Below are positions 1-41,082 of a DNA stretch of 64,000 nucleotides, piece after piece. The stretch lies in assembly GCF_054482595.1 (NCBI RefSeq), contig NZ_CM137008.1; one strand, written 5' to 3'. The number at the start of each line of letters is the position of its first letter. Positions within the stretch are counted from its first letter, which is position 1. Position numbers and translations under genes: made by a program. The notes below the pieces were generated by a model. The model was not told where the DNA came from. It ran no database searches and saw only the letters and a list, made by a program, of their open reading frames with translations.

Positions 1-390
1 TTCGTCTGACCACTTAACGCCACGCTCTGTACCGAATGCCTGTATAAGCTCTAATAGCTCCGCAAATTCGCTTACACGCATCCTGCTGGTTGACTGGCCT
101 ATTACCACAAAGCCATTCCCGGCAAGGTTAGGAACAACGTCCTGCTGCTTTAATGCTGCGGTAAACACACACTTCCAGCTTTCTGCATCCAGCCAGCGAC
201 CATGCCATTCAACCTGACGAGAGACGTCACCAAGGCAAGCCCAAAGCTTTCGATTCTGGTCTAAGCTGCGGTTGCGTTCCTGAATGGTTACTACGATTGG
301 TTTGGTTGGGTCTGGAAGAATTTGCTGTACCGCGTGAATAGCGTTTTGCTGATGTGCTGGAGATCGAATTTCAAAGGTTAGTTTTTTCAT
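1..390 (-). CDS. ninB: NinB (Orf family recombination protein), N-terminal 130 codons; C-terminus lies beyond window start
   Basis: Reverse-strand translation from ATG at 390 reads MKKLTFEIRSPAHQQNAIHAVQQILPDPTK... and reaches window edge as ...ELLELIQAFGTERGVKWSDE, matching lambda NinB as recalled. Confidence 0.8.
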   Translation of the reverse strand, partial: MKKLTFEIRSPAHQQNAIHAVQQILPDPTKPIVVTIQERNRSLDQNRKLWACLGDVSRQVEWHGRWLDAESWKCVFTAALKQQDVVPNLAGNGFVVIGQSTSRMRVSEFAELLELIQAFGTERGVKWSDE

Positions 391-405
391 GACTTCCCTC
401 TCCCC

Positions 406-440
406 CAAATAAAAAGGCCTGCGATTACCAGCAGGCCTGT
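406..440 (-). terminator. Rho-independent terminator between ren and ninB (lambda tR2 position)
   Basis: 8-bp inverted repeat AGGCCTGC/GCAGGCCT followed on minus strand by UUUUUAUUU. Confidence 0.6.
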
Positions 441-463
441 TATTAGCTCAGTAATATAGATGG

Positions 464-754
464 TCATCTTTTAACTCCATATACCGCCAATACCCGTTTC
501 ATCGCGGCACTCTGGCGACACTCCTTAAAAATCAGGTTCGTGCTCATCTTTCCTTCCCGTTCTTCCTTGGTAGCAAACCGGTAATACACCGTTCGCCAGA
601 CCTTACCTTCGATAACCAGAAGACCTGCCCGTGCCATTTTAGCCGCGGCCTGATTTATGCTGGTTACTGTTGCGCCTGTTAGCGCGGCAACGTCCGGCGC
701 ACAGAAGCTATTATGCGTCCCCAGGTAATGAATAATTGCCTCTTTGCCCGTCAT
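464..754 (-). CDS. ren: Ren protein (96 aa)
   Basis: ORF translation matches lambda Ren as recalled; overlaps P stop as in lambda. Confidence 0.9.
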   Translation of the reverse strand: MTGKEAIIHYLGTHNSFCAPDVAALTGATVTSINQAAAKMARAGLLVIEGKVWRTVYYRFATKEEREGKMSTNLIFKECRQSAAMKRVLAVYGVKR

Positions 755-1452
755 ACACTTGCTCCTTTCAGTCCGAACTTAGCTTTGATTTCTGCGATCT
801 TCGCCAGAGCCTGTGCACGATTTAGAGGTCTACCGCCCATGACAGGAAGTTGTTTTACTGGTTCAGGGATCGCCTCACCACGGTTAATTCTCGCAGTCAT
901 ATGGACAAGCTCATCTGCGGCCTTACGGCGTAATTCCGCATCAGTAAGCGCATTGGCCCGCATGTTCTGATACAGGTTGGTAATCAGCCAGTAGTGCGCG
1001 TTTGATTTCCACGGATAAGACTCCGCATCCGGATACAGGCCTCGCTTCCGGCAATACTCGTAAACCATATCAACCAGCTCGCTGACGTTTGGCAGTCCGG
1101 CGGTAACGGATGCTTCTTCCCGGCACCATGCAACAAACTGCCCGGGTGATGGCAGAAATGGTCGATTCTGCCGACGGGCTACGCGCATTCCTGCGTTAAC
1201 CTGTTCCATTGTGGTGATCCCGTTTTCCCGGAAAGCCAGAACCCACTGGCGGCGGATTTCGTTCAGTTCGTTCTGGTCACGGTTAGCCAGGCTCGCCGGG
1301 AAAGTTGCCAGTAACTGGCTGAACACACCGTTGATGATCTGCGCTACCTGCTGTACCTGCGGCTTTTCGTCGTACTGTTCCGGCATGTTGTTGGCGATCC
1401 GACGCATCTGCTCACGGTCAAAGTTAACCATCTGTGCGGCGATGTTTTTCAT
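751..1452 (-). CDS. P: Replication protein P (DnaB helicase loader), 233 aa
   Basis: Full-length translation matches lambda P as recalled; overlaps O stop. Confidence 0.95.
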   Translation of the reverse strand: MKNIAAQMVNFDREQMRRIANNMPEQYDEKPQVQQVAQIINGVFSQLLATFPASLANRDQNELNEIRRQWVLAFRENGITTMEQVNAGMRVARRQNRPFLPSPGQFVAWCREEASVTAGLPNVSELVDMVYEYCRKRGLYPDAESYPWKSNAHYWLITNLYQNMRANALTDAELRRKAADELVHMTARINRGEAIPEPVKQLPVMGGRPLNRAQALAKIAEIKAKFGLKGASV

Positions 1453-2348
1453 AGATCCACCCCGTAAATCCAGTCTGTGTTTGTCAGGTCGAGTTTTGGT
1501 TTACTGGCTGTCACGACTGCCTGTTGCTTGTTACGGTTGATTTCGAGCTGGGTCCACTTGTCGCGGAGTTTGGCCGGACTCAGCACGTTACCGGACCAGA
1601 AGTTGTCCTGGCAGGCCCAGCGGAAAAGCACACACATATCGCGGTGGTTACGTCCGTCACGTTCACGCATCAGGCGGATATCGTTAGCCCACCCAGCAAA
1701 ATTCGGTTTTCTGGCTGATGGCGCGATGGTCTTCACCATGTCAAACATCCACTCTGCGGCGGTCAGGTCTTCTGCTGTTCCCCACTTGCTGCCGCTCTGA
1801 ATTGCAGCATCCGGTTTAACCACAGAAAGATCGTTTTCTGGCTGGTCAGAGGATTTGCCAGAATTCTCGGACGAATAATCTTTTCTTTTTTCTTTTGTAA
1901 TAGTGTCTTTTGTGTCCCCCTGTTTTGAGGGATAGCAATCCCCCAATTTGAGGGATGTTTTATCCCTCGTTTTAGGGGATTTTCCCTCGTTTTGAGGGAT
2001 ACACCATTCTGAGATGTTTTTATTTGGTCCAAACATGCCGCCTTGCTGCTTGATAATATTCATTCTGACGAGTTCTAACTTGGCTTCATTGCACCGTTTG
2101 ACAGGTAACTTTGTAATCTCGCTAAGTTGAGAATCGGTGATTCTGTCCATTGGTTTATTCCACCCATAGGTTTTACGCAGAATGGCAAGCAGCACTTTAA
2201 ACTGTCGCTTGGTCAGATCTGCGCCCGAATAAGCCTCAAGCAGCATATTTGATAGTCTGGCGTAACCATCATCGAGATCTGCCACATTACGCTCCTGTCC
2301 GGCAAAGTTACCTCTGCCGAAGTTGAGTATTTTTGCTGTATTTGTCAT
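1449..2348 (-). CDS. O: Replication initiator O, 299 aa
   Basis: Translation MTNTAKILNFGRGNFAGQERNV... near-identical to lambda O as recalled; contains ori iterons. Confidence 0.95.
   Translation of the reverse strand: MTNTAKILNFGRGNFAGQERNVADLDDGYARLSNMLLEAYSGADLTKRQFKVLLAILRKTYGWNKPMDRITDSQLSEITKLPVKRCNEAKLELVRMNIIKQQGGMFGPNKNISEWCIPQNEGKSPKTRDKTSLKLGDCYPSKQGDTKDTITKEKRKDYSSENSGKSSDQPENDLSVVKPDAAIQSGSKWGTAEDLTAAEWMFDMVKTIAPSARKPNFAGWANDIRLMRERDGRNHRDMCVLFRWACQDNFWSGNVLSPAKLRDKWTQLEINRNKQQAVVTASKPKLDLTNTDWIYGVDL
1870..2001. repeat. ori-lambda: four tandem iterons plus adjacent AT-rich region inside O
   Basis: Four ~19-bp repeats (TCCCTC-N-GAGGGA cores) at ~1912-2001, with an A/T-rich tract at 1870-1910. 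Confidence 0.85.
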
Positions 2349-2359
2349 AATGACTCCTG

Positions 2360-2434
2360 TGGATTGATCCAGTAATTCCCTCAGAATTGCATATCAATTT
2401 GCTTAGAGTCCCCGGCGGCCACCGGGGATTTTTT
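2360..2434 (+). ncRNA. oop: oop-like antisense RNA with its terminator (to), overlapping cII 3' end
   Basis: Plus-strand hairpin CCCCGG-CGGCCA-CCGGGG then T6 at 2410-2434, opposite to cII/O; position and sequence pattern resemble lambda oop as recalled; 5' end approximate. Confidence 0.6.
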
Positions 2435-2677
2435 CTTTGTGATTCCATCAAGCGCATACTTAAAAGCCCTGCTAATTGGACTGATGTCTGATGCCATTCC
2501 GAAAGCACACAAGACCGAAGCAATAAACCGCCAGTCCGTTCTGCTTATCTTCGATTCATGACAGCCAATCATCTTTGCCAGACCGCGCTGGGTAATAGTT
2601 GACAGATTGATAAGTAAATCTGTTTCTGCGCGATCAACGTCACGCTGTGATAGTTTGCTGTAACTTGTTCTTTCCAT
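2381..2677 (-). CDS. cII: CII-like transcriptional activator (98 aa)
   Basis: C-terminus ...KKKSPVAAGDSKQIDMQF resembles lambda CII ...KKRPAATERSEQIQMEF; HTH-like centre; lambda-order position between cro and O. Confidence 0.85.
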   Translation of the reverse strand: MERTSYSKLSQRDVDRAETDLLINLSTITQRGLAKMIGCHESKISRTDWRFIASVLCAFGMASDISPISRAFKYALDGITKKKSPVAAGDSKQIDMQF

Positions 2678-2762
2678 TTCTTAAGATTTCCAATAGTGAA
2701 TAGTTAGTTGAAAGGTATGCGTGGAAACGCATATGGCCTTAGTTGGTCAGATATCTTGGGAC

Positions 2763-2809
2763 TCGCTTTTCAGCGACGTAGGACGAATGTCCGTTGTTAC
2801 AAAGAGCGG
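2763..2809 (-). promoter_or_regulatory. nutR-like site (boxA CGCTCTTTGTAACAAC, boxB UCGCU-GAAA-AGCGA) on pR transcript
   Basis: Minus-strand boxA-like element followed by 5-bp stem/GAAA loop hairpin; near-identical architecture to the nutL candidate at 5263-5309. Confidence 0.5.
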
Positions 2810-2815
2810 GGTTAC

Positions 2816-3043
2816 TTATGCTGCCAGAAGGTTCTTTTTGCTTATTTCAAGCAATTCGCTTGCTTGATATTTGCCACCAGAAATCTCTTCGATTTTTGAG
2901 GCGTATTTCGTTTTCCCAAAAAACTCAGTCTTAGGGAGGAAGCCGTTTTTGAGCCACTTATAGACAGCCCTTTCGCTAACTCCACAAGCCTTCGCAACTT
3001 CAGGGATGCCGACACCTTTAATCGGCTCATCAAGATTTTGCAT
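2816..3043 (-). CDS. cro: Cro-like HTH repressor (75 aa)
   Basis: Small ORF divergent from cI with HTH motif (VAKACGVSERAVYKWLKNG); not lambda Cro sequence. Confidence 0.8.
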   Translation of the reverse strand: MQNLDEPIKGVGIPEVAKACGVSERAVYKWLKNGFLPKTEFFGKTKYASKIEEISGGKYQASELLEISKKNLLAA

Positions 3044-3122
3044 AGGAATATCCCTTTTTCGTACTTTTAGTACGCATTATGGTTGAACTGAAAGTTTTTG
3101 CAAGTGCTTTAGTATCGTACTC
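3044..3122. promoter_or_regulatory. oR-type operator/promoter region (divergent pR/pRM) between cro and cI
   Basis: 79-bp divergent intergenic region with palindromes GTACTTTTAGTAC (3061-3073) and AGTATCGTACT (3110-3120) and motif TTATGGTT also present near the pL region. Confidence 0.6.
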
Positions 3123-3830
3123 ATGGTTCAGAATGAAAAAGTGCGCAAAGAATTCGCCCAGCGGCTAGCGCAAGCCTGTAAAGAAGCTGGTCTTGATGAA
3201 CATGGTAGGGGTATGGCCATAGCCCGTGCCCTTTCTCTTTCGTCCAAAGGCGTTAGCAAATGGTTTAATGCTGAGTCTTTACCGCGTCAGGAAAAAATGA
3301 ATGCGCTTGCGAAATTTCTAAACGTTGATGTTGTTTGGCTTCAGCACGGCACTTCGTTAAATGGAGCGAATGATGAAGATACTCTTTCATTTGTTGGCAA
3401 ATTAAAAAAAGGGTTAGTGCGCGTGGTTGGTGAGGCAATTCTTGGTGTTGATGGTGCCATCGAGATGACCGAAGAGCGCGATGGGTGGCTCAAGATTTAT
3501 AGTGATGATCCAGATGCCTTTGGTCTTCGTGTGAAAGGAGACAGCATGTGGCCCAGAATAAAATCAGGAGAATATGTACTCATTGAGCCTAACACCAAAG
3601 TATTCCCGGGGGATGAGGTGTTTGTCAGAACCGTTGAAGGACACAACATGATCAAGATTCTTGGCTATGACAGAGATGGAGAATACCAATTTACAAGCAT
3701 CAACCAGGACCACAGGCCAATAACGTTACCTTATCATCAAGTAGCAAAGGTGGAGTATGTGGCTGGTATTCTGAAGCAATCTCGTCATCTGGATGACATC
3801 GAGGCAAGGGAGTGGCTGAAAAGTTTGTGA
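3123..3830 (+). CDS. cI: CI-type prophage repressor (N-terminal HTH + C-terminal S24 LexA-like autopeptidase), 235 aa
   Basis: HTH at N-terminus; GDSM serine motif and downstream lysine (MIKILG) typical of S24 family; heterologous to lambda cI. Confidence 0.9.
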   Translation: MVQNEKVRKEFAQRLAQACKEAGLDEHGRGMAIARALSLSSKGVSKWFNAESLPRQEKMNALAKFLNVDVVWLQHGTSLNGANDEDTLSFVGKLKKGLVRVVGEAILGVDGAIEMTEERDGWLKIYSDDPDAFGLRVKGDSMWPRIKSGEYVLIEPNTKVFPGDEVFVRTVEGHNMIKILGYDRDGEYQFTSINQDHRPITLPYHQVAKVEYVAGILKQSRHLDDIEAREWLKSL

Positions 3831-3953
3831 CTTCAAGTACGCGACAAGCCCCGTCCTTCAGGGCGTGGAGGATGTCAAAATAACTTTAAATAACACACCA
3901 CCAACATTTAACACATTGAATTAAAAAACCTACAATATTTGATGAGAGGCGTT

Positions 3954-4274
3954 ATGGAACCGGTCAAAATTAAACCATCTGTGGATTATATTGAAACCTA
4001 TGCGGACTTCGCTAGTTTTGCTCCACTACCGGGAGCGGAAAAAAATCTCATTTGTATACATTTTATCGCAAACAAGTCAATACCTGCGGTACTATCCCAA
4101 AATGATATACCAGATCAACCAGGTAGAGCGAATATGCAGATAGGCTCTGTAAATGAACTCAATCAGCAATGCACTGTGATAATGCCAATGGCACAACTAA
4201 AGGCTCTTCAGGAGAATATAGTTCTTCTTTTCGAACAATTAGAGGCACAAAACTCTAATGGAGCGAAGTCGTAA
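3954..4274 (+). CDS. Hypothetical protein ORF-A (~106 aa), first gene of cassette in rexA position
   Basis: ORF with GAGG Shine-Dalgarno 5 nt before ATG 3954 (alternative starts 3939/3942); stop overlaps ORF-B start (TAATG); no family recognised. Confidence 0.6.
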   Translation: MEPVKIKPSVDYIETYADFASFAPLPGAEKNLICIHFIANKSIPAVLSQNDIPDQPGRANMQIGSVNELNQQCTVIMPMAQLKALQENIVLLFEQLEAQNSNGAKS

Positions 4275-4957
4275 TGCAACAACCGGAAGAAGTAGGTGAT
4301 TTAACTATTACTTACAAAACATCAAGTATTGTTAAACCACTGCAAGTTTCCCTGAATAACGTTAATACTCGCGATTTCATGATGTTCATGGAAACAGCAA
4401 AAGGTAATCTGTTTTCTACGCCTATTTCCTCTTATTCACCAAAAAACATGGTGGATGATGCGACCAATTCCCAGCTAACTGCTACAATCGTAGATAAAGG
4501 AGGGGTTGCCGATTGTAAAGGACAATCTAATGTTATCCCACCGTACGAGGAAACTCCTATACAGGGAACCGCAATGTCCGATTTGAGCAGAAACGAAATA
4601 CAGGCACTTCTGAAGGCAAATAAAGCTGAAGTGGATGCAGTGGCCTCAAAAATGCAGGCTGATATGGCCAAATGGCGTGAACTAATGGCTTCAGATATAA
4701 AGGAGATGAAGCATTTAGTTGTTACTCAGCACGAACAAATCAACAGTCGTCTGGACATACAATCGAGTAGAATTGAGAGTGCCCTTGACTCCCAATCAAA
4801 AAAGATCGATGCAGCTCTTTCTGTTCAAGAGGCAAAGTTAGAAGGTAAGCTTAGTGATGTTAAGCTTGATATAATCAAATGGGCCCTTGGCTTGCCAGCA
4901 TTAGCATTTGCTGTATATAAAATCTACGGATTGCTCTCTGGAGTCTCAACCCCCTAA
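4274..4957 (+). CDS. Hypothetical tail-anchored membrane protein ORF-B (227 aa), in rexB position
   Basis: Translationally coupled to ORF-A; heptad-like/charged segment ~100-200; single C-terminal hydrophobic helix IIKWALGLPALAFAVYKIYGLL; no family recognised. Confidence 0.65.
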   Translation: MQQPEEVGDLTITYKTSSIVKPLQVSLNNVNTRDFMMFMETAKGNLFSTPISSYSPKNMVDDATNSQLTATIVDKGGVADCKGQSNVIPPYEETPIQGTAMSDLSRNEIQALLKANKAEVDAVASKMQADMAKWRELMASDIKEMKHLVVTQHEQINSRLDIQSSRIESALDSQSKKIDAALSVQEAKLEGKLSDVKLDIIKWALGLPALAFAVYKIYGLLSGVSTP

Positions 4958-4963
4958 TACACA

Positions 4964-4989
4964 CCCGGCCTCAGTGCCGGGTTTTCTTT
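4964..4989 (+). terminator. Rho-independent terminator closing the cI/ORF-A/ORF-B unit (lambda timm position)
   Basis: CCCGGC-CTCAGT-GCCGGG hairpin followed by TTTTCTTT. Confidence 0.65.
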
Positions 4990-4999
4990 GCCCAACGTT

Positions 5000-5262
5000 C
5001 GCCCACCTAAAAACACATAATCGATTGTATTTATTGAAAAACTGATAGATACAACTTGCTAAACAGTGCAACCCTGATCCCTGCCCCATCACCTTCATCC
5101 TCAACATTTACAAAAATAAAATACCTTATATATCAAAACCATATCTCGAGAAAACGAATGAACAACAAAATTTCGTACTTATGGTTCTTGATTGTATCGA
5201 ACCAATAGTTCATTATTATCACCATCAGCAGGACGCTGGAAGCCAAACGGAACAGACTGGCA
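5000..5262 (+). promoter_or_regulatory. pL/oL region (inferred), driving N and the leftward early operon
   Basis: Located between terminator and nutL; candidate -35/-10 TTGATT-17-CATTAT at ~5178-5206; inverted repeats GAACCAATAGTTC and TTATGGTTC. Confidence 0.4.
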
Positions 5263-5309
5263 GGCTCTTTAAACAACGTCGAACTCTCGACTACGTGGCT
5301 GAAAAGCCA
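5263..5309 (+). promoter_or_regulatory. nutL-like site (boxA GGCTCTTTAAACAAC, boxB UGGCU-GAAA-AGCCA)
   Basis: boxA-like GCTCTTT and 5-bp stem/GAAA loop hairpin ~100 nt upstream of N; same boxA/spacer(CTACGT)/boxB layout as the nutR candidate. Confidence 0.5.
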
Positions 5310-5407
5310 GATCACCCAACCACATAAGCTGTGGGATGCAATGCCGAAGCAACCGTCTCAGGAGGAGCTTCGAGATTGCATCGCCAAAGTTTATTCGGGA
5401 GGAATCT

Positions 5408-5680
5408 ATGTCCAGAAAAACAAAATTTAAAGGCACCGCAGCTTCTCGCCGTAGAGCCCGTCGCGCAAATCTGCAAAGTCAGGAGGCGATCAGCTCCGAC
5501 AAGCTACACAGACCAACCCCTTCACGAGTGGTCTTGCAATGCAAGCGCAAACCAGCAATGAGAGCAGAAGTTATAACTCTGACAACGTTGACCAGAAAAT
5601 ATGAAGGTTCAACTTGTCTTCCGAACGTAGCTCTTTACGCGGCAGGCTACCGGAAATCAAAACAACTGACGGCGAGATGA
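5408..5680 (+). CDS. N: N-type antiterminator (90 aa), P22 gp24-like
   Basis: Arg-rich N-terminal motif (GTAASRRRARRANL) and C-terminus ...CLPNVALYAAGYRKSKQLTAR resembling recalled P22 gp24 ...LLPGVALYAAGHRKSKQITAR; ORF-track start 5336 judged too far upstream. Confidence 0.8.
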   Translation: MSRKTKFKGTAASRRRARRANLQSQEAISSDKLHRPTPSRVVLQCKRKPAMRAEVITLTTLTRKYEGSTCLPNVALYAAGYRKSKQLTAR

Positions 5681-5696
5681 TAAATTAATTTGCTAA

Positions 5697-6278
5697 TTAC
5701 TTGTTTTTGCCATGCTTATCCTGAGCGATAAGTTCATCCATAAGACTGTCTTTCTTCCCAGCAAACCTAATGTAGCACTCATTTCTATAGCGTTCCGGGA
5801 TAACAAAACGGTCGATTTCAGGATATCCAGTAGCAGAAGGTACCCGAATAAGAAGCCCTTTTTCGAGCAATGAGATTGCTTCAGGGCTTCCCTTTTCTGT
5901 CTTTAGCTGGTTATTAGCGGCTACAGCGAATGCCAAATACGCTCTTTCTCCAAGAGTTAACGAATCAAACAAATCTTGCACGTATTTCTCTTCTTTAGAT
6001 TTGCGCTTCTGAGCAGCGAATATCTCAATTCTTTCAGTCACAGCGTGATAAGCGGAATTAACAACGCCGTTAAGCACATAGCTAACGCAAAACAACAGGA
6101 TGTAATACATCCAGTAATGAGGAAGGATTTCTGGATTATGCAGGTTTATCCATTCTTTTACGCTTACAGGCATAACAATAATCAATATGATCAGGATGAT
6201 TAGCATATGAATCAACTGTTTAAGTGTCATTCCTTGCAGGAAAAAATGCATTAGTTCCTGCCACCATGAGTTGTTCAT
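5697..6278 (-). CDS. sieB: Superinfection exclusion protein B (193 aa), membrane protein
   Basis: Translation MNNSWWQELMHFFLQGMTLKQLIHMLIILIILIIVMPV... matches lambda SieB as recalled. Confidence 0.9.
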   Translation of the reverse strand: MNNSWWQELMHFFLQGMTLKQLIHMLIILIILIIVMPVSVKEWINLHNPEILPHYWMYYILLFCVSYVLNGVVNSAYHAVTERIEIFAAQKRKSKEEKYVQDLFDSLTLGERAYLAFAVAANNQLKTEKGSPEAISLLEKGLLIRVPSATGYPEIDRFVIPERYRNECYIRFAGKKDSLMDELIAQDKHGKNK

Positions 6279-6538
6279 CGGCGTTTCTCTTTTGCTCTCT
6301 GTAGGGGTGAATAGAGTTTATCCGATTTCTCGCTGTAGGGGTACACGAGAACCACCGAGCCTGATGTGGTTAAAAGACAGGCATACTAATAAACACTGCA
6401 CTGTGTATTCATTCCAACGAGTGAATACACTGAGCAATGTCGCTCGTAACTAAACAGGAGCCGACTTGTTCTGATTATTGGAAATCTTCTTTGCCCTCCA
6501 ATGTGAGGGCGATTTTTTATCTGTGAGGATATGAATAG

Positions 6539-6907
6539 ATGTCAAACATCAAAAAATACATCATTGATTACGACTGGAAAGCATCAATAGAAATTGAAAT
6601 CGACCATGACGTAATGACAGAGGAAAAACTTCACCAGATTAATAATTTCTGGTCAGACTCTGAATACCGACTCAATAAACACGGCTCTGTATTAAATGCT
6701 GTATTAATCATGCTGGCGCAACATGCTCTGCTTATAGCAATTTCAAGCGACTTAAATGCATATGGTGTTGTGTGTGAGTTCGACTGGAATGATGGAAATG
6801 GTCAGGAAGGATGGCCTCCAATGGATGGTAGCGAAGGAATAAGAATTACCGATATCGATACATCAGGAATATTTGATTCAGATGATATGACTATCAAAGC
6901 CGCCTGA
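6539..6907 (+). CDS. ea10: Ea10-like protein (122 aa)
   Basis: Size and position between sieB and cIII as in lambda; sequence identity recalled only approximately. Confidence 0.75.
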   Translation: MSNIKKYIIDYDWKASIEIEIDHDVMTEEKLHQINNFWSDSEYRLNKHGSVLNAVLIMLAQHALLIAISSDLNAYGVVCEFDWNDGNGQEGWPPMDGSEGIRITDIDTSGIFDSDDMTIKAA

Positions 6908-6979
6908 GCGCGGCGTTACCGCATACCAATAACGCTTCACTCGAGGCGTTTTTCGTTATGTATAAATAAGGAGCACACC

Positions 6980-7144
6980 ATGCAATATGCCATTGCAGGG
7001 TGGCCTGTTGCTGGCTGCCCTTCCGAATCTTTACTTGAACGAATCACCCGTAAATTACGTGACGGATGGAAACGCCTTATCGACATACTTAATCAGCCAG
7101 GAGTCCCAAAAAATGGATCAAACACTTATGGCTATCCAGACTAA
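6980..7144 (+). CDS. cIII: CIII (FtsH inhibitor, 54 aa)
   Basis: Translation [54 protein letters not shown] matches lambda CIII; below ORF-track size cutoff. Confidence 0.9.
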   Translation: MQYAIAGWPVAGCPSESLLERITRKLRDGWKRLIDILNQPGVPKNGSNTYGYPD

Positions 7145-7256
7145 ATTCACTATCGCCACTTTTATTGGCGATGAAAAGATGTTTCGTGAGGCCGTCGACG
7201 CTTATAAAAAATGGATATTAATACTGAAACTGAGATCAAGCAAAAGCATTCACTAA
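7113..7256 (+). CDS. kil: Kil (FtsZ-targeting host killing peptide, 47 aa)
   Basis: [47 protein letters not shown] matches lambda Kil; overlaps cIII and gam. Confidence 0.85.
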
Positions 7257-7627
7257 CCCCCTTTCCTGTTTTCCTAATCAGCCCGGCATTTCGCGGGCGA
7301 TATTTTCACAGCTATTTCAGGAGTTCAGCCATGAACGCTTATTACATTCAGGATCGTCTTGAGGCTCAGAGCTGGACGCGTCACTACCAGCAGATCGCCC
7401 GTGAAGAGAAAGAGGCAGAACTGGCAGACGACATGGAAAAAGGTCTGCCCCAGCACCTGTTTGAATCACTCTGCATCGATCATTTACAACGCCACGGGGC
7501 CAGCAAAAAAGCCATTACCCGTGCGTTTGATGACGATGTTGAGTTTCAGGAGCGCATGGCAGAACACATCCGGTACATGGTTGAAACCATTGCTCACCAC
7601 CAGGTTGATATTGATTCAGAGGTATAA
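7211..7627 (+). CDS. gam: Gam (RecBCD inhibitor), 138 aa long form
   Basis: Translation near-identical to lambda Gam as recalled. Confidence 0.95.
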
Positions 7628-7632
7628 AACGG

Positions 7633-8418
7633 ATGAGTACAGCACTCGCAACGCTGGCTGGGAAGCTGGCTGAACGCGTCGGCATGGATTCTGTCGACCC
7701 ACAGGAACTGATCACCACTCTTCGCCAGACGGCATTTAAAGGTGATGCCAGCGATGCGCAGTTCATCGCATTGCTGATCGTCGCCAACCAGTACGGCCTT
7801 AATCCGTGGACGAAAGAAATTTACGCCTTCCCTGACAAGCAGAACGGCATCGTTCCGGTGGTGGGCGTTGATGGCTGGTCCCGTATCATCAATGAAAACC
7901 AGCAGTTTGATGGCATGGACTTTGAGCAGGACAATGAATCCTGCACATGCCGGATTTACCGCAAGGACCGCAATCATCCGATCTGCGTTACCGAGTGGAT
8001 GGATGAATGCCGCCGCGAACCATTCAAAACCCGCGAAGGCAGAGAAATCACGGGGCCGTGGCAGTCGCATCCCAAACGGATGTTACGGCATAAAGCCATG
8101 ATTCAGTGTGCCCGTCTCGCCTTCGGATTTGCTGGTATCTATGACAAGGATGAAGCCGAGCGCATTGTCGAAAATACCGCATACACTGCAGAACGTCAGC
8201 CGGAACGCGACATCACTCCGGTTAACGATGAAACCATGCAGGAGATTAACACTCTGCTGATTGCCCTGGATAAAACATGGGATGACGACTTATTGCCGCT
8301 CTGTTCCCAGATATTTCGCCGCGACATTCGAGCATCGTCAGAACTGACACAGGCCGAAGCAGTGAAAGCTCTTGGATTCCTGAAACAGAAAGCCACTGAG
8401 CAGAAGGTGGCAGCATGA
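7633..8418 (+). CDS. bet: Bet (Red beta single-strand annealing protein), 261 aa
   Basis: Translation matches lambda Bet as recalled. Confidence 0.95.
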
Positions 8419-9095
8419 CACCGGACATTATCCTGCAGCGTACCGGGATCGACGTGAGAGCTGTCGAACAGGGGGATGATGCGTGGCACAAATTACGGCT
8501 CGGCGTCATCACCGCTTCAGAGGTTCACAATGTGATAGCAAAACCCCGCTCCGGAAAGAAATGGCCTGACATGAAAATGTCCTACTTCCACACCCTGCTT
8601 GCCGAGGTTTGCACCGGTGTGGCTCCGGAAGTTAACGCTAAGGCGCTGGCCTGGGGAAAACAGTACGAGAACGACGCCAGAGCCCTCTTTGAGTTCACTT
8701 CCGGCGTGAATGTTACTGAATCCCCGATCATCTATCGCGACGAAAGTATGCGCACCGCCTGCTCTCCCGATGGTTTATGCAGTGACGGCAACGGCCTTGA
8801 ACTGAAATGCCCGTTTACCTCCCGGGATTTCATGAAGTTCCGGCTCGGTGGTTTCGAGGCCATAAAGTCGGCTTACATGGCCCAGGTGCAGTACAGCATG
8901 TGGGTGACGCGAAAAGATGCCTGGTACTTTGCCAACTATGACCCGCGCATGAAGCGTGAAGGCCTGCATTATGTCGTGATTGAGCGGAATGAAAAGTACA
9001 TGGCGAGTTTTGACGAGATGGTGCCGGAGTTCATCGAAAAAATGGACGAGGCACTGGCTGAAATTGGTTTTGTATTTGGGGAGCAATGGCGATGA
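8415..9095 (+). CDS. exo: Exo (Red alpha 5'-3' exonuclease), 226 aa
   Basis: Translation matches lambda Exo as recalled. Confidence 0.95.
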
Positions 9096-9274
9096 CGCAT
9101 CCTCACGATAATATCCGGGTAGGCGCAATCACTTTCGTCTACTCCGTTACAAAGCGAGGCTGGGTATTTCCCGGCCTTTCTGTTATCAGAAATCCACTGA
9201 AAGCACAGCGGCTGGCTGAGGAGATAAATAATAAACGGGGAGCTGTATGCACAAAGCATCTCCCGTTGAGTTAA
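9086..9274 (+). CDS. lambda orf60a-like small protein (62 aa)
   Basis: Matches recalled lambda orf60a; overlaps exo 3' end. Confidence 0.7.
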
Positions 9275-9438
9275 GAACGAGTATCGAGATGGCACATAGC
9301 CTCGCTCAAATTGGAGTCAGGTTTGTGCCAATACCAGTAGAAACAGACGAAGAATTTCATACGTTAGCCGCATCCCTTTCACAAAAGCTGGAAATGATGG
9401 TGGCGAAAGCAGAAGCAGATGAGAGAGACCAGGTATGA
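9247..9438 (+). CDS. lambda orf63-like small protein (63 aa)
   Basis: Matches recalled lambda orf63. Confidence 0.7.
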   Translation: MHKASPVELRTSIEMAHSLAQIGVRFVPIPVETDEEFHTLAASLSQKLEMMVAKAEADERDQV

Positions 9439-9518
9439 CAACCACGGAATGCATTTTTCTGGCAGCGGGCTTCATATTCTGTGTGCTTATGCTTGCCGAC
9501 ATGGGACTTGTTCAATGA
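9435..9518 (+). CDS. Small hydrophobic peptide (27 aa, MTTTECIFLAAGFIFCVLMLADMGLVQ), ATGA-coupled on both sides
   Basis: Read from sequence: ATG overlaps orf63 stop (ATGA), stop overlaps next gene start (ATGA); single predicted TM helix; below ORF-track cutoff. Confidence 0.4.
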   Translation: MTTTECIFLAAGFIFCVLMLADMGLVQ

Positions 9519-9730
9519 CACCTCAGCAGGAAAACGCCCTTCGCAGTATTGCCCGTCAGGCTAATTCTGAAATCAAAAAAGCCAGACAGCAGTTTCCGGA
9601 TAAAAACGTCGATGACATTTGCCGTAGCGTACTGAAGAAGCACCGCGAAACGGTAACGCTGATGGGATTCACACCGACTCATTTAAGCCTGGCGATCGGC
9701 ATGTTAAACGGCGTCTTTAAGGAACGGTGA
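9515..9730 (+). CDS. lambda orf61-like small protein (71 aa from this start)
   Basis: In-frame ATG at 9515 within ORF 9419-9730; sequence MTPQQENALRSIARQ...; start choice uncertain. Confidence 0.6.
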   Translation: MTPQQENALRSIARQANSEIKKARQQFPDKNVDDICRSVLKKHRETVTLMGFTPTHLSLAIGMLNGVFKER

Positions 9731-9752
9731 GCATGAAAAACAAAATCATCAT

Positions 9753-9776
9753 GGAGCTACAGGCTCCTTTTTTATT
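9753..9776 (+). terminator. Weak intrinsic terminator-like hairpin inside the leftward operon
   Basis: GGAGC-TACAG-GCTCC followed by TTTTTT; only a 5-bp stem. Confidence 0.35.
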
Positions 9777-9828
9777 ATTCGCATTCACCCTCAAGCGTAT
9801 TAACCAACAATTCAGGGATTAATGAAAG

Positions 9829-10050
9829 ATGGCAGACATCATTGATTCAGCATCAGAAATTGAAGAATTACAGCGCAATACAGCAATAAAAATGCGTCGT
9901 CTGAACTACCAGACTATATCCGCCACTCATTGTTGTGAGTGTGGCGATCCCATAGATGAACGAAGACGCCTGGTCGTTCAGGGTTGTCGGACTTGTGCAA
10001 GTTGCCAGGAGGATCTGGAGCTTATCAGTAAACAGAGAGGTTCGAAGTGA
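9829..10050 (+). CDS. TraR/DksA-family C4 zinc-finger protein (73 aa)
   Basis: CxxC...CxxC motif (CCECGDPIDERRRLVVQGCRTCASCQ) typical of TraR/DksA-type phage proteins. Confidence 0.7.
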   Translation: MADIIDSASEIEELQRNTAIKMRRLNYQTISATHCCECGDPIDERRRLVVQGCRTCASCQEDLELISKQRGSK

Positions 10051-10454
10051 GCGAAATTAACTCTCAGGCACTGCGTGAAGCGGCAGAGAAAGCCGGTGAA
10101 GATAAGTGGCAGGCTAAAAAAATAAATGGTGATTTTTTCGTTATTCGTCACGGTAGTTATACAAGACAGCATGGCTACACATCGTATCAACCCATTGCGG
10201 AGATTGATTGTAAGCCAGTCCGGGATTTTGTTGCCAAGGCTAATCCGGCTACCGTGCTGGAATTACTGGATGAACTGGAAGCAGCAAAAAAGCGCATTGC
10301 AGAACTGGAAGCGCGGGAAATACTGCTCCCGGAACGTAGCAGCATGCTTCATCGAACAGATTTTCACGATGATTACCAAACGGTAATGGCATACAAAGTT
10401 TCTGAAGTCATCGATGCAATCCGCGCTACTGGCATTCGCATCAAAGGAGAGTGA
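10047..10454 (+). CDS. Ead/Ea22-like protein (135 aa), shortened/mosaic
   Basis: N-terminus MSEINSQALREAAE and C-terminus ...ATGIRIKGE as in lambda Ea22 family; coiled-coil motif LELLDELEAAKKRIAELEARE. Confidence 0.7.
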   Translation: MSEINSQALREAAEKAGEDKWQAKKINGDFFVIRHGSYTRQHGYTSYQPIAEIDCKPVRDFVAKANPATVLELLDELEAAKKRIAELEAREILLPERSSMLHRTDFHDDYQTVMAYKVSEVIDAIRATGIRIKGE

Positions 10455-10455
10455 G

Positions 10456-11211
10456 ATGATTCACTACCACGGTGGGCCTATTACTCCTGATACGTGCGCA
10501 ATGAGGGCATGGAAAGGGCGACATGCGTTTATCAGTTTTGCGCATTCAGGCCAGATCAATCTCGCGGCTGAATACTGTCAGTCGTTCGCGCTGGACAACG
10601 GTGCATTCACCGCCTGGAAAGCAGCTGGCAAAAACAAAATCGACTGGAGCGATTACTACGAGTTTGTTGCTCGCTGGAAGAATCACCCAGGATTCGATTT
10701 TGCCATTATCCCGGATATTATTGATGGCGGAGAGGAGGAAAATGATGCGCTTCTGAATGAGTGGCCTCACGGAAAACTAGCTGGCGTTCCAGTGTGGCAC
10801 ATGAATGAAAGTGACGCGCGATTTATTCATTTGTGCAATGAGTTTCCGCGAGTGGCTATCGGTAGTTGTGGCGACTATGACGTAAAGCGCCCAACTCTTG
10901 CGGTAGCCAGAATGAAAGACCTGATTCGTCACATTGTTGATGGGCATGGTCAGCCGGTTACGAAACTACATGGATTGCGCATGTTAAATCCGCTGATATT
11001 CACAAAATTACCCTTAGCCAGCGCAGATAGTACGAACGTCGCTCGAAACATCGGTATTGATAAAGCCTGGTCTAGGGCTTATGCACCTGCAAGTAAAGAG
11101 ACACGCGCAGCATTAATGGTAGAACGGATTGAGGCACACAATAGCCCTGGTTCTCTTGCGTATTGTGAACAACGCGACCGCTTTGAAATGCAATTGCAAC
11201 TAGCAGTTTAA
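10456..11211 (+). CDS. TGT-fold protein, candidate DpdA-like 7-deazaguanine DNA transglycosylase (251 aa)
   Basis: Strong SD AGGAG before ATG 10456; ordered motifs LDNGAF, FAIIPD, VAIGSCG, HGLRM, ADSTNVARN resembling tRNA-guanine transglycosylase motifs DSGGYQ, MAFDE, AVGG, HYLMGVG, FDCVLPTRSGRN; no zinc-binding subdomain; assignment by eye. Confidence 0.55.
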   Translation: MIHYHGGPITPDTCAMRAWKGRHAFISFAHSGQINLAAEYCQSFALDNGAFTAWKAAGKNKIDWSDYYEFVARWKNHPGFDFAIIPDIIDGGEEENDALLNEWPHGKLAGVPVWHMNESDARFIHLCNEFPRVAIGSCGDYDVKRPTLAVARMKDLIRHIVDGHGQPVTKLHGLRMLNPLIFTKLPLASADSTNVARNIGIDKAWSRAYAPASKETRAALMVERIEAHNSPGSLAYCEQRDRFEMQLQLAV

Positions 11212-11221
11212 GGACTAACAA

Positions 11222-12019
11222 ATGACCACTATTACCAAAGAACGTATTGAATTGTTCATTAAAAATCCGCTTGAAAACGGACTTACTCGTGGCGAACAAA
11301 TGGAACTGGCACGAATTGCACTGGCATCACTGGAACGCGAACTGATTCGCCACGAGCATGCCAAATGGTCTGACTCCACATTTGGCTGCGTTGGCCCCAT
11401 TGGTCCACTGAAACACCTCTCAAAAGAGGCTCTGGAAGCCGCAGCCGAACCAGACGATCTCAGCGAGTGGGCTGATATGCATTTCCTGTTGTGGGATGCA
11501 CAGCGCCGTGCTGGCATCAGCGATGCTGAAATTACCGCTGCTATGGAAGATAAATTGAAGATCAACATGGAGCGCCAGTGGCCTGAACCAATAGATGGTG
11601 AGCCTCGCTTGCACATTAAAGAACCCGGCAACTCTCCGGTAATTCCGGATGGTTTATCCACGGTATGCGCTGAGGCTTATCAGGTTGTAGGAGTTATGGC
11701 AGATGCGCTTGGTGTATTCGGTGATGCAGCAGTACAGAAAGTTCTGGATAACCTGTCACAGCAAAAACTTGTTCACAGAGATGTGCTGCCGTTCTCGCTT
11801 CCGGTGACTCCGGATGGTTGGATAAGCTGTAGTGAGCGAATGCCGAAAGAAACGGGTGACATTATTGTTGTTTCGGATGGCATTGTAATGTCCGGGATTT
11901 CTTATTCTCGTCGTGACGGGTTCTATATAGCCGCATTGGAGTACGACGACGATGAGCCAATTGGCGGTGTAACCCACTGGATGCCTCTACCAGAACCGCC
12001 TCGATTAAAGGAGCTATAA
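11222..12019 (+). CDS. Phage protein with N-terminal dATP/dGTP pyrophosphohydrolase-like (DUF550-like) region and C-terminal DUF551-like region (265 aa)
   Basis: C-terminal motif PDGWISCSERMPKE...THWMPLPEPP typical of DUF551; N-terminal acidic region (EWADMHFLLWDAQRR) resembles MazG-like nucleotide pyrophosphohydrolases; recalled, not searched. Confidence 0.6.
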   Translation: MTTITKERIELFIKNPLENGLTRGEQMELARIALASLERELIRHEHAKWSDSTFGCVGPIGPLKHLSKEALEAAAEPDDLSEWADMHFLLWDAQRRAGISDAEITAAMEDKLKINMERQWPEPIDGEPRLHIKEPGNSPVIPDGLSTVCAEAYQVVGVMADALGVFGDAAVQKVLDNLSQQKLVHRDVLPFSLPVTPDGWISCSERMPKETGDIIVVSDGIVMSGISYSRRDGFYIAALEYDDDEPIGGVTHWMPLPEPPRLKEL

Positions 12020-12133
12020 TAGTGAACTATTATATCTATTTGTATTAAAAGAGTTTTTATAAAATAAATCTTCCAAAGCATGTAAAAACACTGTTAATCT
12101 TAACGTGTGTGAAACGTGAAGAGAGGTGTTGAA

Positions 12134-12415
12134 ATGAGCATTCATGATTTGTGTGAAGATCAAGAGCAATGGGCTATGCAGACCCTTATGGGATCAGGAG
12201 TTCTTGCAAGGTGCAGAATCCATAACGATGTAATTTTAGACAGCGGAAATGATGCTTCTTCTGCTTATAAATTAGGAACTTACCTATATCAAAAAGATAA
12301 TAGCTGCAACTTATTCAATACTCTTACTGAAGCCCGCGACGCAATAAAGGATGCATATGAATCGTATTGTGGGATCGATGATTGCCCACAATGCTCAAAA
12401 TACATTGACGATTAA
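12134..12415 (+). CDS. ea8.5: Ea8.5-like protein (93 aa from ATG 12134)
   Basis: SD GAGAGGTG upstream of ATG 12134 (ORF track starts at GTG 12116); C-terminal CPQC motif; lambda-like position and size. Confidence 0.6.
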   Translation: MSIHDLCEDQEQWAMQTLMGSGVLARCRIHNDVILDSGNDASSAYKLGTYLYQKDNSCNLFNTLTEARDAIKDAYESYCGIDDCPQCSKYIDD

Positions 12416-12503
12416 TAATATGAACAAGTAACTATCCTCGCACTCGCGGGGATTTCTTTTATCTGAACTCGCTACGGCGAGTTTTGTTTTATGGAGATGA
12501 TAA

Positions 12504-12671
12504 ATGCACTTCCGAGTTACAGGTGAATGGAATGGAGAACCATTCAACAGAGTTATCGAAGCCGAGAACATCAGCGACTGCTATGACCACTGGATGCTGT
12601 GGGCGCAGATAGCACATGCAGACGTAACCAATATTCGAATTGAAGAACTGAAAGAACACCAAGCCGCCTGA
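12504..12671 (+). CDS. lambda orf55-like protein (55 aa)
   Basis: Translation MHFRVTGEWNGEPFNRVIEAENISDCYDHWMLWAQIAHADVTNIRIEELKEHQAA; followed by hairpin and T-run; below ORF-track cutoff. Confidence 0.6.
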   Translation: MHFRVTGEWNGEPFNRVIEAENISDCYDHWMLWAQIAHADVTNIRIEELKEHQAA

Positions 12672-12710
12672 TGGCGGTTTTTTCTTGCGTGTAATTGCGG
12701 AGACTTTGCG

Positions 12711-12929
12711 ATGTACTTGACACTTCAGGAGTGGAACGCACGCCAGCGACGCCCAAGAAGCCTTGAAACAGTTCGTCGATGGGTACGCGAGTGCAGGATA
12801 TTCCCTCCTCCGGTTAAGGATGGAAGAGAGTATCTGTTCCACGAATCAGCGGTAAAGGTTGACTTAAATCGACCAGTAACAGGTAGCCTTTTGAAGAGGA
12901 TCAGAAATGGGAAGAAGGCGAAGTCATGA
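12711..12929 (+). CDS. xis: Excisionase Xis (72 aa)
   Basis: Translation MYLTLQEWNARQRRPRSLETVRRWVRECRIFPPPVKDGREYLFHESAVKVDLNRPVTGSLLKRIRNGKKAKS matches lambda Xis. Confidence 0.95.
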   Translation: MYLTLQEWNARQRRPRSLETVRRWVRECRIFPPPVKDGREYLFHESAVKVDLNRPVTGSLLKRIRNGKKAKS

Positions 12930-13980
12930 GCGCCGGGATTTACCCCCTAACCTTTATATAAGAAACAATGGATATTACTGCTACAGGGACCCAAGGACGG
13001 GTAAAGAGTTTGGATTAGGCCGAGACAGGAGGATAGCAATCACTGAAGCAATACAGGCCAATATTGAGTTACTCTCAGACAGCGGACGCAAATCACTGAT
13101 AGACAGAATTAAAGGCGGTGACGCAATCACTCTTCATGTGTGGCTTGACCGATATGAAACAATCCTCACCGAAAGGGGGATCAGGCCGAAAACTCTACTC
13201 GACTACGCCAGCAAAATCAGGGCAATCCGAAGAAAATTGCCGGACAAACCGCTCACTGACATATCAACGAAAGAAGTGGCAGCAATGCTAAACACCTACG
13301 TAGCAGAAGGTAAAGCAGCTTCCGCAAAATTAATCAGGTCAACCCTTGTTGACGTTTTTCGTGAAGCAATAGCCGAGGGGCATGTGGCAACGAATCCGGT
13401 AACAGCAACCCGTACAGCAAAGTCAGAAGTAAGGCGCTCAAGGCTGACAGCTAATGAGTATGTCGAGATTTACCATGCAGCCGAACCTCTCCCTATCTGG
13501 CTAAGGCTGGCGATGGATTTGGCCGTCGTTACAGGGCAGAGAGTCGGCGATTTGTGCAGAATGAAATGGTCAGACATAAACGACAACCATCTTCACATTA
13601 AACAGAGTAAAACAGGGGCTAAACTCGCCATTCCGCTAACGCTAACGATTGACGCGCTCAATATCTCATTGGCTGATACACTACAGAAATGCAGGGAGGC
13701 CAGCAGCAGTGAAACTATAATCGCATCAAAGCATCACGATCCGCTTTCCCCGAAAACAGTATCAAAGTATTTTACAAAGGCGAGAAATGCATCTGGCCTC
13801 TCATTTGATGGAAACCCGCCAACATTCCATGAACTGCGTAGCCTGTCAGCGAGGCTATACCGGAACCAGATTGGCGATAAGTTTGCTCAACGTCTTCTCG
13901 GGCATAAATCAGATTCAATGGCGGCGCGGTATAGGGACAGCCGTGGACGGGAATGGGACAAAATTGAAATCGACAAATGA
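12907..13980 (+). CDS. int: Tyrosine integrase Int (357 aa), lambda-family
   Basis: N-terminus MGRRRSHERRDLPPNLYIRNNGYYCYRDPRTGKEFGLGRDRRIAITEAIQANIEL and C-terminal RSLSARLY...HLLGHKSD...REWDKIEI as in lambda Int; central domain divergent. Confidence 0.95.
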   Translation: MGRRRSHERRDLPPNLYIRNNGYYCYRDPRTGKEFGLGRDRRIAITEAIQANIELLSDSGRKSLIDRIKGGDAITLHVWLDRYETILTERGIRPKTLLDYASKIRAIRRKLPDKPLTDISTKEVAAMLNTYVAEGKAASAKLIRSTLVDVFREAIAEGHVATNPVTATRTAKSEVRRSRLTANEYVEIYHAAEPLPIWLRLAMDLAVVTGQRVGDLCRMKWSDINDNHLHIKQSKTGAKLAIPLTLTIDALNISLADTLQKCREASSSETIIASKHHDPLSPKTVSKYFTKARNASGLSFDGNPPTFHELRSLSARLYRNQIGDKFAQRLLGHKSDSMAARYRDSRGREWDKIEIDK

Positions 13981-14074
13981 TTTTATTTTGACTAATAATG
14001 ACCTACTTACATTAATTTACTGATAATTAAAGAGATTTTAAATATACAACTTATTCACCTTAAGTGCACCGACC
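13981..14074. other. attL-type prophage/host junction region (P' arm with arm-type Int sites; core not resolved)
   Basis: TTTTGACTAATAATGACC resembles lambda P' arm-type sites as recalled; lies between int stop and host torS start. Confidence 0.4.
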
Positions 14075-16819
14075 GTGAATTTAACCCTGACCCGAAGACT
14101 CTGGATGGGCTTTGCCCTGATGGCACTGTTAACCCTGACCAGTACCCTGGTGGGATGGTACAACCTGCGCTTTATCAGCCAGGTGGAAAAAGACAATACT
14201 CAGGCATTGATTCCTACCATGAATATGGCGCGCCAGTTGAGCGAAGCCAGCGCCTGGGAACTTTTCGCCGCGCAGAACCTGACCAGTGCCGATAACGAAA
14301 AGATGTGGCAGGCGCAGGGGCGAATGCTCACCGCACAAAGCCTGAAGATTAATGCGTTGCTGCAAGCGTTACGGGAACAAGGTTTTGATACCACCGCTAT
14401 TGAACAACAGGAGCAGGAGATCTCCCGTTCGTTACGTCAGCAAGGGGAACTGGTGGGGCAGCGTTTGCAACTGCGCCAGCAACAACAGCGACTCAGTCAG
14501 CAGATAGTCGCTGCCGCCGATGAGATCGCACGCCTGGCGCAAGGTCAGGCGAATAATGCGACAACTTCCGCTGGAGCGACCCAGGCCGGGATTTACGATT
14601 TGATCGAACAAGATCAGCGTCAGGCTGCTGAAAGTGCACTCGACCGGCTGATTGATATCGATCTTGAGTATGTTAACCAGATGAATGAACTGCGCCTTAG
14701 CGCCCTGCGGGTGCAGCAAATGGTGATGAATCTGGGGCTGGAACAGATCCAGAAAAATGCGCCAACGCTGGAAAGGCAGCTCAATAATGCGGTGAAAATT
14801 CTGCAACGTCGGCAAATACGCATTGAAGATCCGGGAGTTCGTGCGCAGGTCGCAACAACGTTAACTACCGTTAGCCAATATAGCGATCTGTTGGCGCTGT
14901 TCCAGCAGGACAGTGAAATCAGCAATCACCTGCAAACTCTCGCCCAAAATAATATCGCCCAGTTCGCGCAGTTTAGTAGCGAAGTCAGTCAGCTGGTCGA
15001 CACCATTGAGCTGCGCAATCAGCATGGACTGGCGCATCTGGAAAAAGCCAGTGCACGCGGGCAATACAGCCTGTTATTGCTGGGGATGGTTTCACTTTGC
15101 GCACTGATTCTGATCCTCTGGCGCGTGGTTTATCGCTCAGTCACGCGTCCACTTGCCGAACAAACGCAGGCGCTGCAACGGCTGCTGGACGGTGATATTG
15201 ACTCCCCTTTTCCGGAAACCGCTGGCGTACGGGAGCTGGATACCATCGGGCGGCTGATGGATGCGTTTCGCAGCAGTGTTCATGCACTGAATCGCCACCG
15301 CGAACAGCTGGCGGCGCAGGTCAAAGCACGTACAGCTGAATTGCAGGAACTGGTGATAGAACACCGACAGGCACGGGCGGAAGCAGAAAAAGCCAGCCAG
15401 GCAAAATCGGCGTTTCTGGCGGCGATGAGCCATGAGATCCGCACACCGCTGTACGGTATTCTCGGCACCGCACAGCTACTGGCAGATAACCCCACACTTA
15501 ACGCCCAGCGTGATGATTTGCGGGCAATTACTGACTCTGGTGAATCGTTGCTGACCATCCTCAACGATATTCTCGATTATTCGGCTATCGAAGCAGGTGG
15601 CAAGAATGTTTCGGTCAGCGATGAGCCCTTTGAACCGCGCCCGCTGCTGGAAAGTACCCTGCAATTAATGAGCGGACGGGTGAAAGGTCGCCCGATTCGC
15701 CTGGCAACGGCAATTGCCGATGATGTACCGAGCGCGTTAATGGGCGATCCGCGGCGTATTCGTCAGGTCATTACCAACCTGTTGAGCAACGCCCTGCGTT
15801 TTACTGACGAAGGGCAGATCGTTTTACGTAGCCGTACTGATGGTGAGCAATGGCTGGTCGAAGTGGAAGACAGCGGCTGCGGTATTGATCCCGCGAAACT
15901 GGCAGAAATCTTCCAGCCATTTATTCAGGTAAGTGGCAAACGCGGCGGCACCGGGCTGGGGCTGACTATCAGTAGCCGTCTGGCCCAGGCGATGGGCGGC
16001 GAACTGAGCGCCACCAGCACGCTGGAGGTTGGAAGCTGTTTTTGTTTACGCTTGCCGTTACGTGTTGCCACAGCACCCGCGCCAAAAACAGCCAATCAGG
16101 CGGTGCGTCTGGACGGTTTACGTTTGCTGTTAATTGAAGATAACCCGCTAACCCAGCGAATTACCGTTGAGATGCTGAACACCAGTGGTGCGCAGGTTGT
16201 TGCTATTGGCAATGCCGCGCAGGCTTTAGAGACACTGCAAAATAGCGAACCGTTTGCTGCCGCACTGGTGGATTTTGATCTGCCGGATATCGACGGCATT
16301 ACCCTTGCCCGGCAACTGGCACAGCAATATCCGTCGCTGGTTTTGATTGGCTTTAGCGCTCATGTCATTGACGAAACGCTGCGCCAGCGTACCAGTTCAC
16401 TATTTCGCGGGATTATCCCTAAACCGGTGCCGCGTGAAGTGCTCGGTCAGTTACTGGCGCACTATCTCCACCTGCAAGTCAATAACGATCTACCACTTGA
16501 TGTATCGCAACTCAATGAAGATGCTCAATTAATGGGGACGGAGAAGATCCACGAATGGCTGGCATTATTTAAACAACATGCCCTGCCGCTTCTCGATGAA
16601 ATCGACATTGCCCGCGCCAGCCAGGACAGCGAGAAAATAAAGCGTGCCGCGCATCAGCTAAAAAGCAGTTGCTCGAGTCTGGGAATGCGTAGCGCCAGTC
16701 AGCTATGCGCACAACTGGAGCAGCAGCCATTATCTGCCCCCCTTCCACACGAAGAAATTACACGCAGTGTTGCCGCTCTGGAAGCATGGTTGAATAAGAA
16801 AGACCTGAACGCGATTTGA
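14075..16819 (+). CDS. torS: TMAO sensor hybrid histidine kinase TorS (914 aa), GTG start
   Basis: Full-length match to E. coli TorS as recalled (HAMP, HisKA/HATPase, receiver, HPt domains). Confidence 0.95.
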
Positions 16820-18406: not shown

Positions 18407-18579
18407 GGTCAGTGCGTATTTGCAGCGCGACGTTATCAAAGGTGATCATCGTCGATTTACAAAAAATACACTTAGCGCCCAAAGGGTTTCGCTCCGTCAC
18501 ATCGAATGCCGATGTGCGGTACTGTGAACCATGACAACATGGACAGCGGAAATGGAGATGTTGAGTAATAACGGCAACC

Positions 18580-27446: not shown

Positions 27447-27460
27447 AACTGAAGGTAAAG

Positions 27461-27500
27461 TGACCGGATGCGGCGTGAACGCCTTTTCCGGTCTACGCAT
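27461..27500. repeat. REP-like palindromic element downstream of etk
   Basis: GACCGGATGCGGCGTGAACGCCTTTTCCGGTCTAC resembles the E. coli REP consensus. Confidence 0.5.

Positions 27501-40707: not shown

Positions 40708-41082
<375 letters not shown>

Follow-up and report, generated by a model that had tools for sequence, protein, structure and literature searches.

The left end of the 64-kb stretch of E. coli DNA analysed here (hereafter the window, 64,000 nucleotides in all) contains, within a gene for a phage replication initiator, a short series of repeats followed by AT-rich DNA, and this raises the question of whether a resident prophage has kept a working replication origin, and whether that origin could fire upon induction. 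The earlier note on this DNA, made from the letters alone, had claimed that four iterons and an AT-rich tract are readable inside O at positions 1870–2001, and that the prophage therefore keeps a functional theta origin and is likely to be inducible, and replication-competent if its late genes are intact. As judged by sequence comparison, the feature is almost certainly ori-lambda, the iteron-type theta origin of the lambdoid phages, and the O gene in which it lies belongs to a lambda-like prophage.

In phage lambda this origin spans nucleotides 39034–39160 and comprises four 18-bp iterons and a 38-bp high-AT sequence (Hayes et al. 2012, PMC3349717). A base-by-base alignment with the lambda genome (NC_001416) revealed that all 127 bases of this interval are shared by the minus strand of the window at 1874–2000, and the same 127 bp are also base-identical in phage 21. 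[quoted passage not shown] The O-binding sites, all on the minus strand, are ITN1 (ATCCCTCAAAACGAGGGA, 1983–2000), which corresponds to lambda 39034–39051 and is annotated there as 'ori iteron 1', ITN2 (ATCCCCTAAAACGAGGGA, 1963–1980; lambda 39054–39071), ITN3 (ATCCCTCAAATTGGGGGA, 1939–1956; lambda 39078–39095) and ITN4 (ATCCCTCAAAACAGGGGG, 1916–1933; lambda 39101–39118). A repeat search recovered them as one family of four members of 18 nt each, with start-to-start distances of 23, 24 and 20 bp along the plus strand; these are the tandem 18–19-bp repeats with the dyad TCCCYC...GRGGGA, spaced by approx. 20–24 bp, that characterize ori-lambda. The spacers between them are likewise base-identical to those of lambda and phage 21. 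A degenerate pattern written in the lambda iteron register, ATCCCYYAAAWYRRGGGR, matched exactly four times in the 64-kb window, each match being one of the four iterons, and had no match across 100 dinucleotide-preserving shuffles. A strict palindromic pattern, TCCCYCNNNNNNRRGGGA, caught only two of the four iterons, a chance-level result, and was dropped in favour of the lambda-register pattern.

Immediately past ITN4 lies the AT-rich tract (1874–1915, minus strand), at which ori-lambda is unwound; it is identical to lambda approx. 39119–39160. The region 1870–1915, which comes after the iterons in the reading direction of O, is 74% A+T, and GC content along the O gene is lowest here (27.5% at 1860–1899). 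Its strand asymmetry is strong, with an AT skew of −0.78 on the plus strand, so that the strand-asymmetric tract of approx. 40 bp expected next to the last iteron is found at its proper place. Going outward from the origin, the first differences from lambda are encountered at 2001, 1869 and 1856; those at 2001 and 1869 are synonymous and common to phage 21. A search against Rfam gave no match in the ori/oop region.

The AT-rich tract is flanked by an imperfect palindrome (TCCGAGAATTCTGGCAAATCCTCTGA, 1846–1871, minus strand), read from the sequence and the alignments, whose counterpart after the AT-rich tract of lambda is TCAGAGAATTCTGGCGAATCCTCTGA. In older descriptions this palindrome was counted within ori; the definition given in PMC3349717 leaves it out. 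The window differs from lambda at two positions of the palindrome, 1869 and 1856, and one pair is broken by each of them; phages 21 and 933W share the variant at 1869, and the variant at 1856, which changes residue 165 of O (E165K), is particular to the allele found in the window.

The gene that holds the origin encodes the origin-binding initiator O, with 299 aa (1449–2348, minus strand; Pfam Phage_rep_O, E 5.5e-36, residues 22–115). Its reading frame is intact and of full length, and P, also intact, comes next. The origin occupies codons 117–159, past the Phage_rep_O domain, which is the position known for ori-lambda, i.e., between the N-terminal DNA-binding part and the C-terminal part of O. 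Relative to lambda, the 900 bp of the gene carry 16 substitutions, none of them in ori; 14 are synonymous and the only amino-acid changes are E165K and G278V. Residues 1–164, which include the whole origin-binding part, are those of lambda O, and by this identity the protein would be the cognate initiator, with a specificity that matches the iterons. The protein has 99% identity with its counterparts in lambda, 21 and 434, and the gene matches 167 phage records, with phage 21 as the best of them (99.4%) and the lambda derivatives at approx. 99%; the exact O protein is present on 100 public contigs. Valine at position 278 is also present in O of phage 434, which is a functional phage; in the search for an isolated phage with this O allele, no exact match was found to the 61-bp segment around G278V.

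The E165K change results from a G-to-A substitution at window position 1856 and affects a residue located in a serine- and acid-rich low-complexity linker (SSENSGESSDQ), outside the Phage_rep_O domain. It is absent from all of the 50,697 phage records searched, and therefore the exact O allele is one unseen in an isolated virion; among the 5426 complete E. coli genomes it was found in only 8, in nine records altogether, one of which is the plasmid pSM107_MCR. This rare K165 allele is the sole slightly unusual point of the locus, and there is no reason to expect that it has a functional effect. It could be imagined that K165, together with the two substitutions that weaken the palindrome, yields a quantitatively altered origin, one that relies to another extent on transcriptional activation or on host factors, as has been reported for the variants of this module in Stx phages, or one with an altered over-replication of the adjacent torS and gfc/etk region upon induction; we consider this very unlikely.

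The second replication gene, P, encodes a DnaB helicase loader of 233 aa (751–1452, minus strand; Pfam Phage_lambda_P, E 6.1e-62). Its start overlaps the stop of O, and the loader is thus found directly downstream of the initiator. P is 99% identical to lambda P, from which it differs by two conservative changes, V63L (common to phage 21) and V157I; the exact protein is present on 309 public contigs. Next on the minus strand are ren (464–754; PHROG 142, Ren-like exclusion protein, E 3.6e-42), annotated as 'protein ren' in the identical sequence of E. coli EC5502, and, at the left end of the window, the start of ninB. On the other side of O, a promoter/terminator scan located on the plus strand the pO promoter, a homologue of the oop antisense RNA and the terminator tO (2323–2439). 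The pO promoter, with its −35 at 2323–2328 and its −10 at 2346–2351, has the lambda sequence; the body of oop has diverged from lambda, and the G+C-rich terminator stem (2405–2432) and its T run (to 2439) are kept. At approx. 2360 a replication module of the lambda/21 type joins a different immunity module. At the level of sequence, all the cis elements of the origin and both phage-encoded trans factors are therefore present, and they hardly differ from those of phages whose replication is established; this supports the proposal of an intact theta origin of the lambda type, given the 127 identical bases of ori, the 164 lambda residues of O and a full-length P.

The immunity module starts with a cII-like activator (2381–2677, minus strand; Pfam Phage_CII, E 6.7e-31), which is preceded in the reading direction by the gene of a cro-like repressor (2816–3043, minus strand), which opens the rightward operon leading into O and P; this cro-like gene shows matches to HTH families and is annotated as an HTH protein in EC5502. 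Between cro and cI there is a pR-like promoter, TTGCAA-16 bp-CATAAT (3076–3103, minus strand), recognized as a consensus match only. Promoter-like sites were no more numerous in the promoter scan than in shuffled sequence; the pR-like match (3103–3076) is in the expected place and orientation, and is a candidate source of the transcription that would activate ori. A perfect palindrome, CGTACTTTTAGTACG, lies beside it at 3060–3074, and a near copy is found at 5171–5185, near pL and upstream of N; this pair has the layout expected of the oR and oL operators, as pattern matches only. The divergent cI-like repressor has 235 aa (3123–3830, plus strand), with an HTH_3 domain and a Pfam Peptidase_S24 domain (E 4.8e-16), and the exact protein is present on at least 1000 public contigs. 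The only segment of it that aligns with lambda cI is GDSM, which corresponds to GNSM, the segment of the catalytic serine, and no sequence relative was detected among solved structures at E < 0.001. Given the HTH and S24 domains and the alignment of the catalytic-serine segment, SOS induction through self-cleavage of cI would be the expected route. The module ends with an antiterminator of the N type, of 90 aa (5408–5680, plus strand; Pfam N_peptide, E 7.9e-32). The pR-like promoter, cro, cII, oop, N and a cI with an S24 domain agree with the earlier suggestion that the prophage is likely to be inducible.

Several minor features accompany these genes. Two hairpins with 5-bp stems and GAAA loops, TCGCTGAAAAGCGA and TGGCTGAAAAGCCA, were seen by eye at 2763–2776 (minus strand) and 5296–5309 (plus strand); the first follows cro and the second precedes N, which are the positions expected for the boxB elements of nutR and nutL, and are putative as such. 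Directly past cI, at the position of lambda rexA/rexB, there are two co-oriented genes of 106 and 227 aa (3954–4957), followed by a terminator (4963–4982). The first has no family match; the second shows only a match to PHROG 14825 (unknown function) and a sub-threshold match to a CCDC90-like coiled coil, and no convincing match in PADLOC. Both are candidate exclusion or conversion genes expressed in the lysogen. The whole immunity region (2349–5700, with cII, cro, cI, the cargo genes and N) was found in none of the 50,697 phage records, and its best match, to Stx2a-converting phages, covers 51% of it at 94% identity. Further to the right, ahead of cIII, Rfam recognized the lambda cIII thermoregulator element (6967–7025, plus strand) with a score that exceeds the gathering threshold; it is ordinary.

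From these components, and by analogy with lambda (reviewed in PMC7466680), a sequence of events can be proposed. The repressor cI would be inactivated by RecA-stimulated self-cleavage through its S24 domain during the SOS response. The derepressed pR-like promoter would then transcribe cro, cII, O and P; O dimers would bind the four iterons through their N-terminal domain and bend the DNA, giving rise to the O-some, which in turn would strain and open the adjoining AT-rich tract. The host helicase DnaB would be brought to the O-some by P, and the release of P by DnaK, DnaJ and GrpE would allow bidirectional theta replication, with transcription from pR through or near ori aiding initiation. 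The firing of the origin requires derepression, O, P, ori and host factors, and the late genes matter only for the production of particles. The proviso that the late genes be intact, attached by the earlier note to replication, was therefore misplaced, since O binding, unwinding and firing need none of them. The earlier reading is otherwise sound, and the prophage is probably replication-competent upon induction, as far as its sequence can tell.

The comparison with known phages places the locus among the four-iteron origins. Lambda has the same position of the origin within O, the same O length, P and ren downstream, and pO/oop upstream; the two differ beyond the right side of oop, where cII, cro, cI and N of the window belong to another lambdoid immunity type. 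The annotations of lambda, 21 and 434 label the equivalent sites as gpO-binding iterons of ori-lambda (for 21 and 434, 'ori lambda 4 iterons for gpO binding'). Phage 21, the best overall match to O, shows five differences in 900 bp, an identical ori and the variants at 2001 and 1869 in common with the window, whereas phage 434, which shares V278, is substituted at three positions of ITN4 and the AT-rich tract at which the window is unchanged; both 21 and 434 lack K165. The Stx phages 933W and P27, which have six-iteron origins, have iterons, O and P of the same families as the window, and the AT-rich tract as well.

Two other readings of the repeats themselves have to be weighed. The iterons are translated within O, and they could be merely a coding feature, a repetitive peptide linker, with replication starting elsewhere. 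However, iterons of identical sequence have been shown by footprinting and deletion to be bound by O and required for replication (PMC3349717, PMC7466680), and the annotation of the identical prophage has no replication module of the P22 18/12 type nor a DnaB/DnaC-like one; this reading is extremely improbable. Equally improbable is that the locus is the origin variant of Stx phages, which has six iterons and an O enlarged by 13 aa, and depends less on transcriptional activation and DnaA; a lower dependence on transcriptional activation and different host-factor requirements have been described for the Stx-type origin (PMC7466680). Many of the closest database matches of O are indeed Stx-converting phages, and parts of the immunity region are approx. 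94% like Stx2a phages; nevertheless, the 39-bp insertion of 933W that carries iterons 1' and 1'' is missing from the window, and O has 299 residues instead of the 312 of 933W, so that the alignment with this phage rules out the six-iteron reading. The four-iteron ori-lambda is therefore retained, and the remaining alternative concerns the phage around it.

It could be argued that the ori sequence is intact but that the prophage is defective or cryptic, for instance if its late genes are damaged, if its left end is lost or if there is a defect in trans such as E165K, so that the origin would be a relic, or would serve for escape replication in situ without producing phage. In favour of this possibility, the late region lies outside the window and E165K occurs in no phage record. 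The left 14 kb of the window are the early half of a lambdoid prophage, with the rightward operon running leftward, and along the plus strand the order is cI, the two cargo genes, N, then ea10, cIII, kil, gam, bet and exo, xis, int, and finally torS. The integrase has 357 aa (12907–13980, plus strand; PHROG integrase, E 3.5e-92, and EC5502 annotation), and the prophage ends just past it, adjoining torS. Positions 1–14124 are 100% identical to E. coli EC5502, with the identity ending approx. 50 bp into the torS reading frame; for the host backbone beyond the prophage the best complete-genome match is 99.1% (strain 4FM). EC5502 and 4FM, which share the identical 14.1-kb early region, carry the same prophage, of approx. 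48 kb, from torS to torT, and thus the lambda-like prophage sits between torT and torS in the E. coli chromosome. In these two genomes the late region includes Q, holin, lysozyme, Rz, both terminase subunits, portal, protease, the decoration and major capsid proteins, the head-tail joining proteins, a complete tail set through J, lom, and the tail fibre with its assembly protein, and none of the late genes bears a pseudogene flag. The late genes of the prophage studied here are located beyond the left edge of the window (position 1), and their completeness is judged from EC5502 and 4FM. Such full late operons next to an identical early region speak against a defective prophage, as do the position of residue 165 in a linker outside the Phage_rep_O domain and the early genes of the window, which are all open except for two small fragments flagged as pseudogenes by RefSeq. 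The same O allele is also found at a second site, on a plasmid, which implies a recent movement. On balance, a defective prophage is an unlikely explanation, and an intact origin in a prophage probably able to replicate is preferred.

The second site is in pSM107_MCR (NZ_CP130669.1), a plasmid of 111 kb named for mcr, which carries a near-identical early region at 27274–45432. The products of O, P, ren, the nin genes, bet, exo, xis and int are identical RefSeq proteins in both places, but cI, cro and the cargo gene are different, the last of these encoding here a Clp-fold serine proteinase of the SDH family; a resistance plasmid has in this case taken up a lambdoid prophage by integration. The presence of the same O, P and Int between torS and torT in EC5502 and 4FM and in pSM107_MCR, in unrelated strains, suggests that this phage lineage has recently been mobile or active, although this evidence is circumstantial.

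The two pseudogenes mentioned above were called by RefSeq in the identical EC5502 sequence. One (5205–5430) is a frameshifted hypothetical gene that immediately precedes N in the pL/nutL region, and may be a spurious call; the other (11222–11341) is a partial hypothetical gene ahead of a dATP/dGTP pyrophosphohydrolase gene. Regarding the attachment site, comparison of both prophage ends gave as a possible att core only a 10-bp repeat, AATTTAACCC (14078–14087), which overlaps the start of torS and is unconvincing.

The four-iteron lambda origin is already known, very common and ordinary. The 127-bp ori was matched in 1331 of the 5426 complete E. coli genomes, i.e., approx. a quarter of them, with 1222 records at 99% identity or more; given this frequency, the locus matters little and opens no new question. 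In its cis elements the replication module cannot be told from the best-studied of all phage origins. Its recognition helps to label the prophage as likely active in annotations, and to detect induced prophages by their read-depth peaks.

The remainder of the window (14125–64000) is ordinary E. coli chromosome that includes torS, yccM, the csp genes, gfcA-E, etp, etk, appA/appCB, the hya operon, a tRNA-Ser gene, and the genes from yccA to pyrD. Two further Rfam matches that exceed the gathering threshold fall in this part, and both are ordinary: a cspA-type thermoregulator in the leader region of cspG (18526–18948, minus strand), and a tRNA (37774–37858, plus strand) that is the tRNA-Ser of the 4FM annotation.
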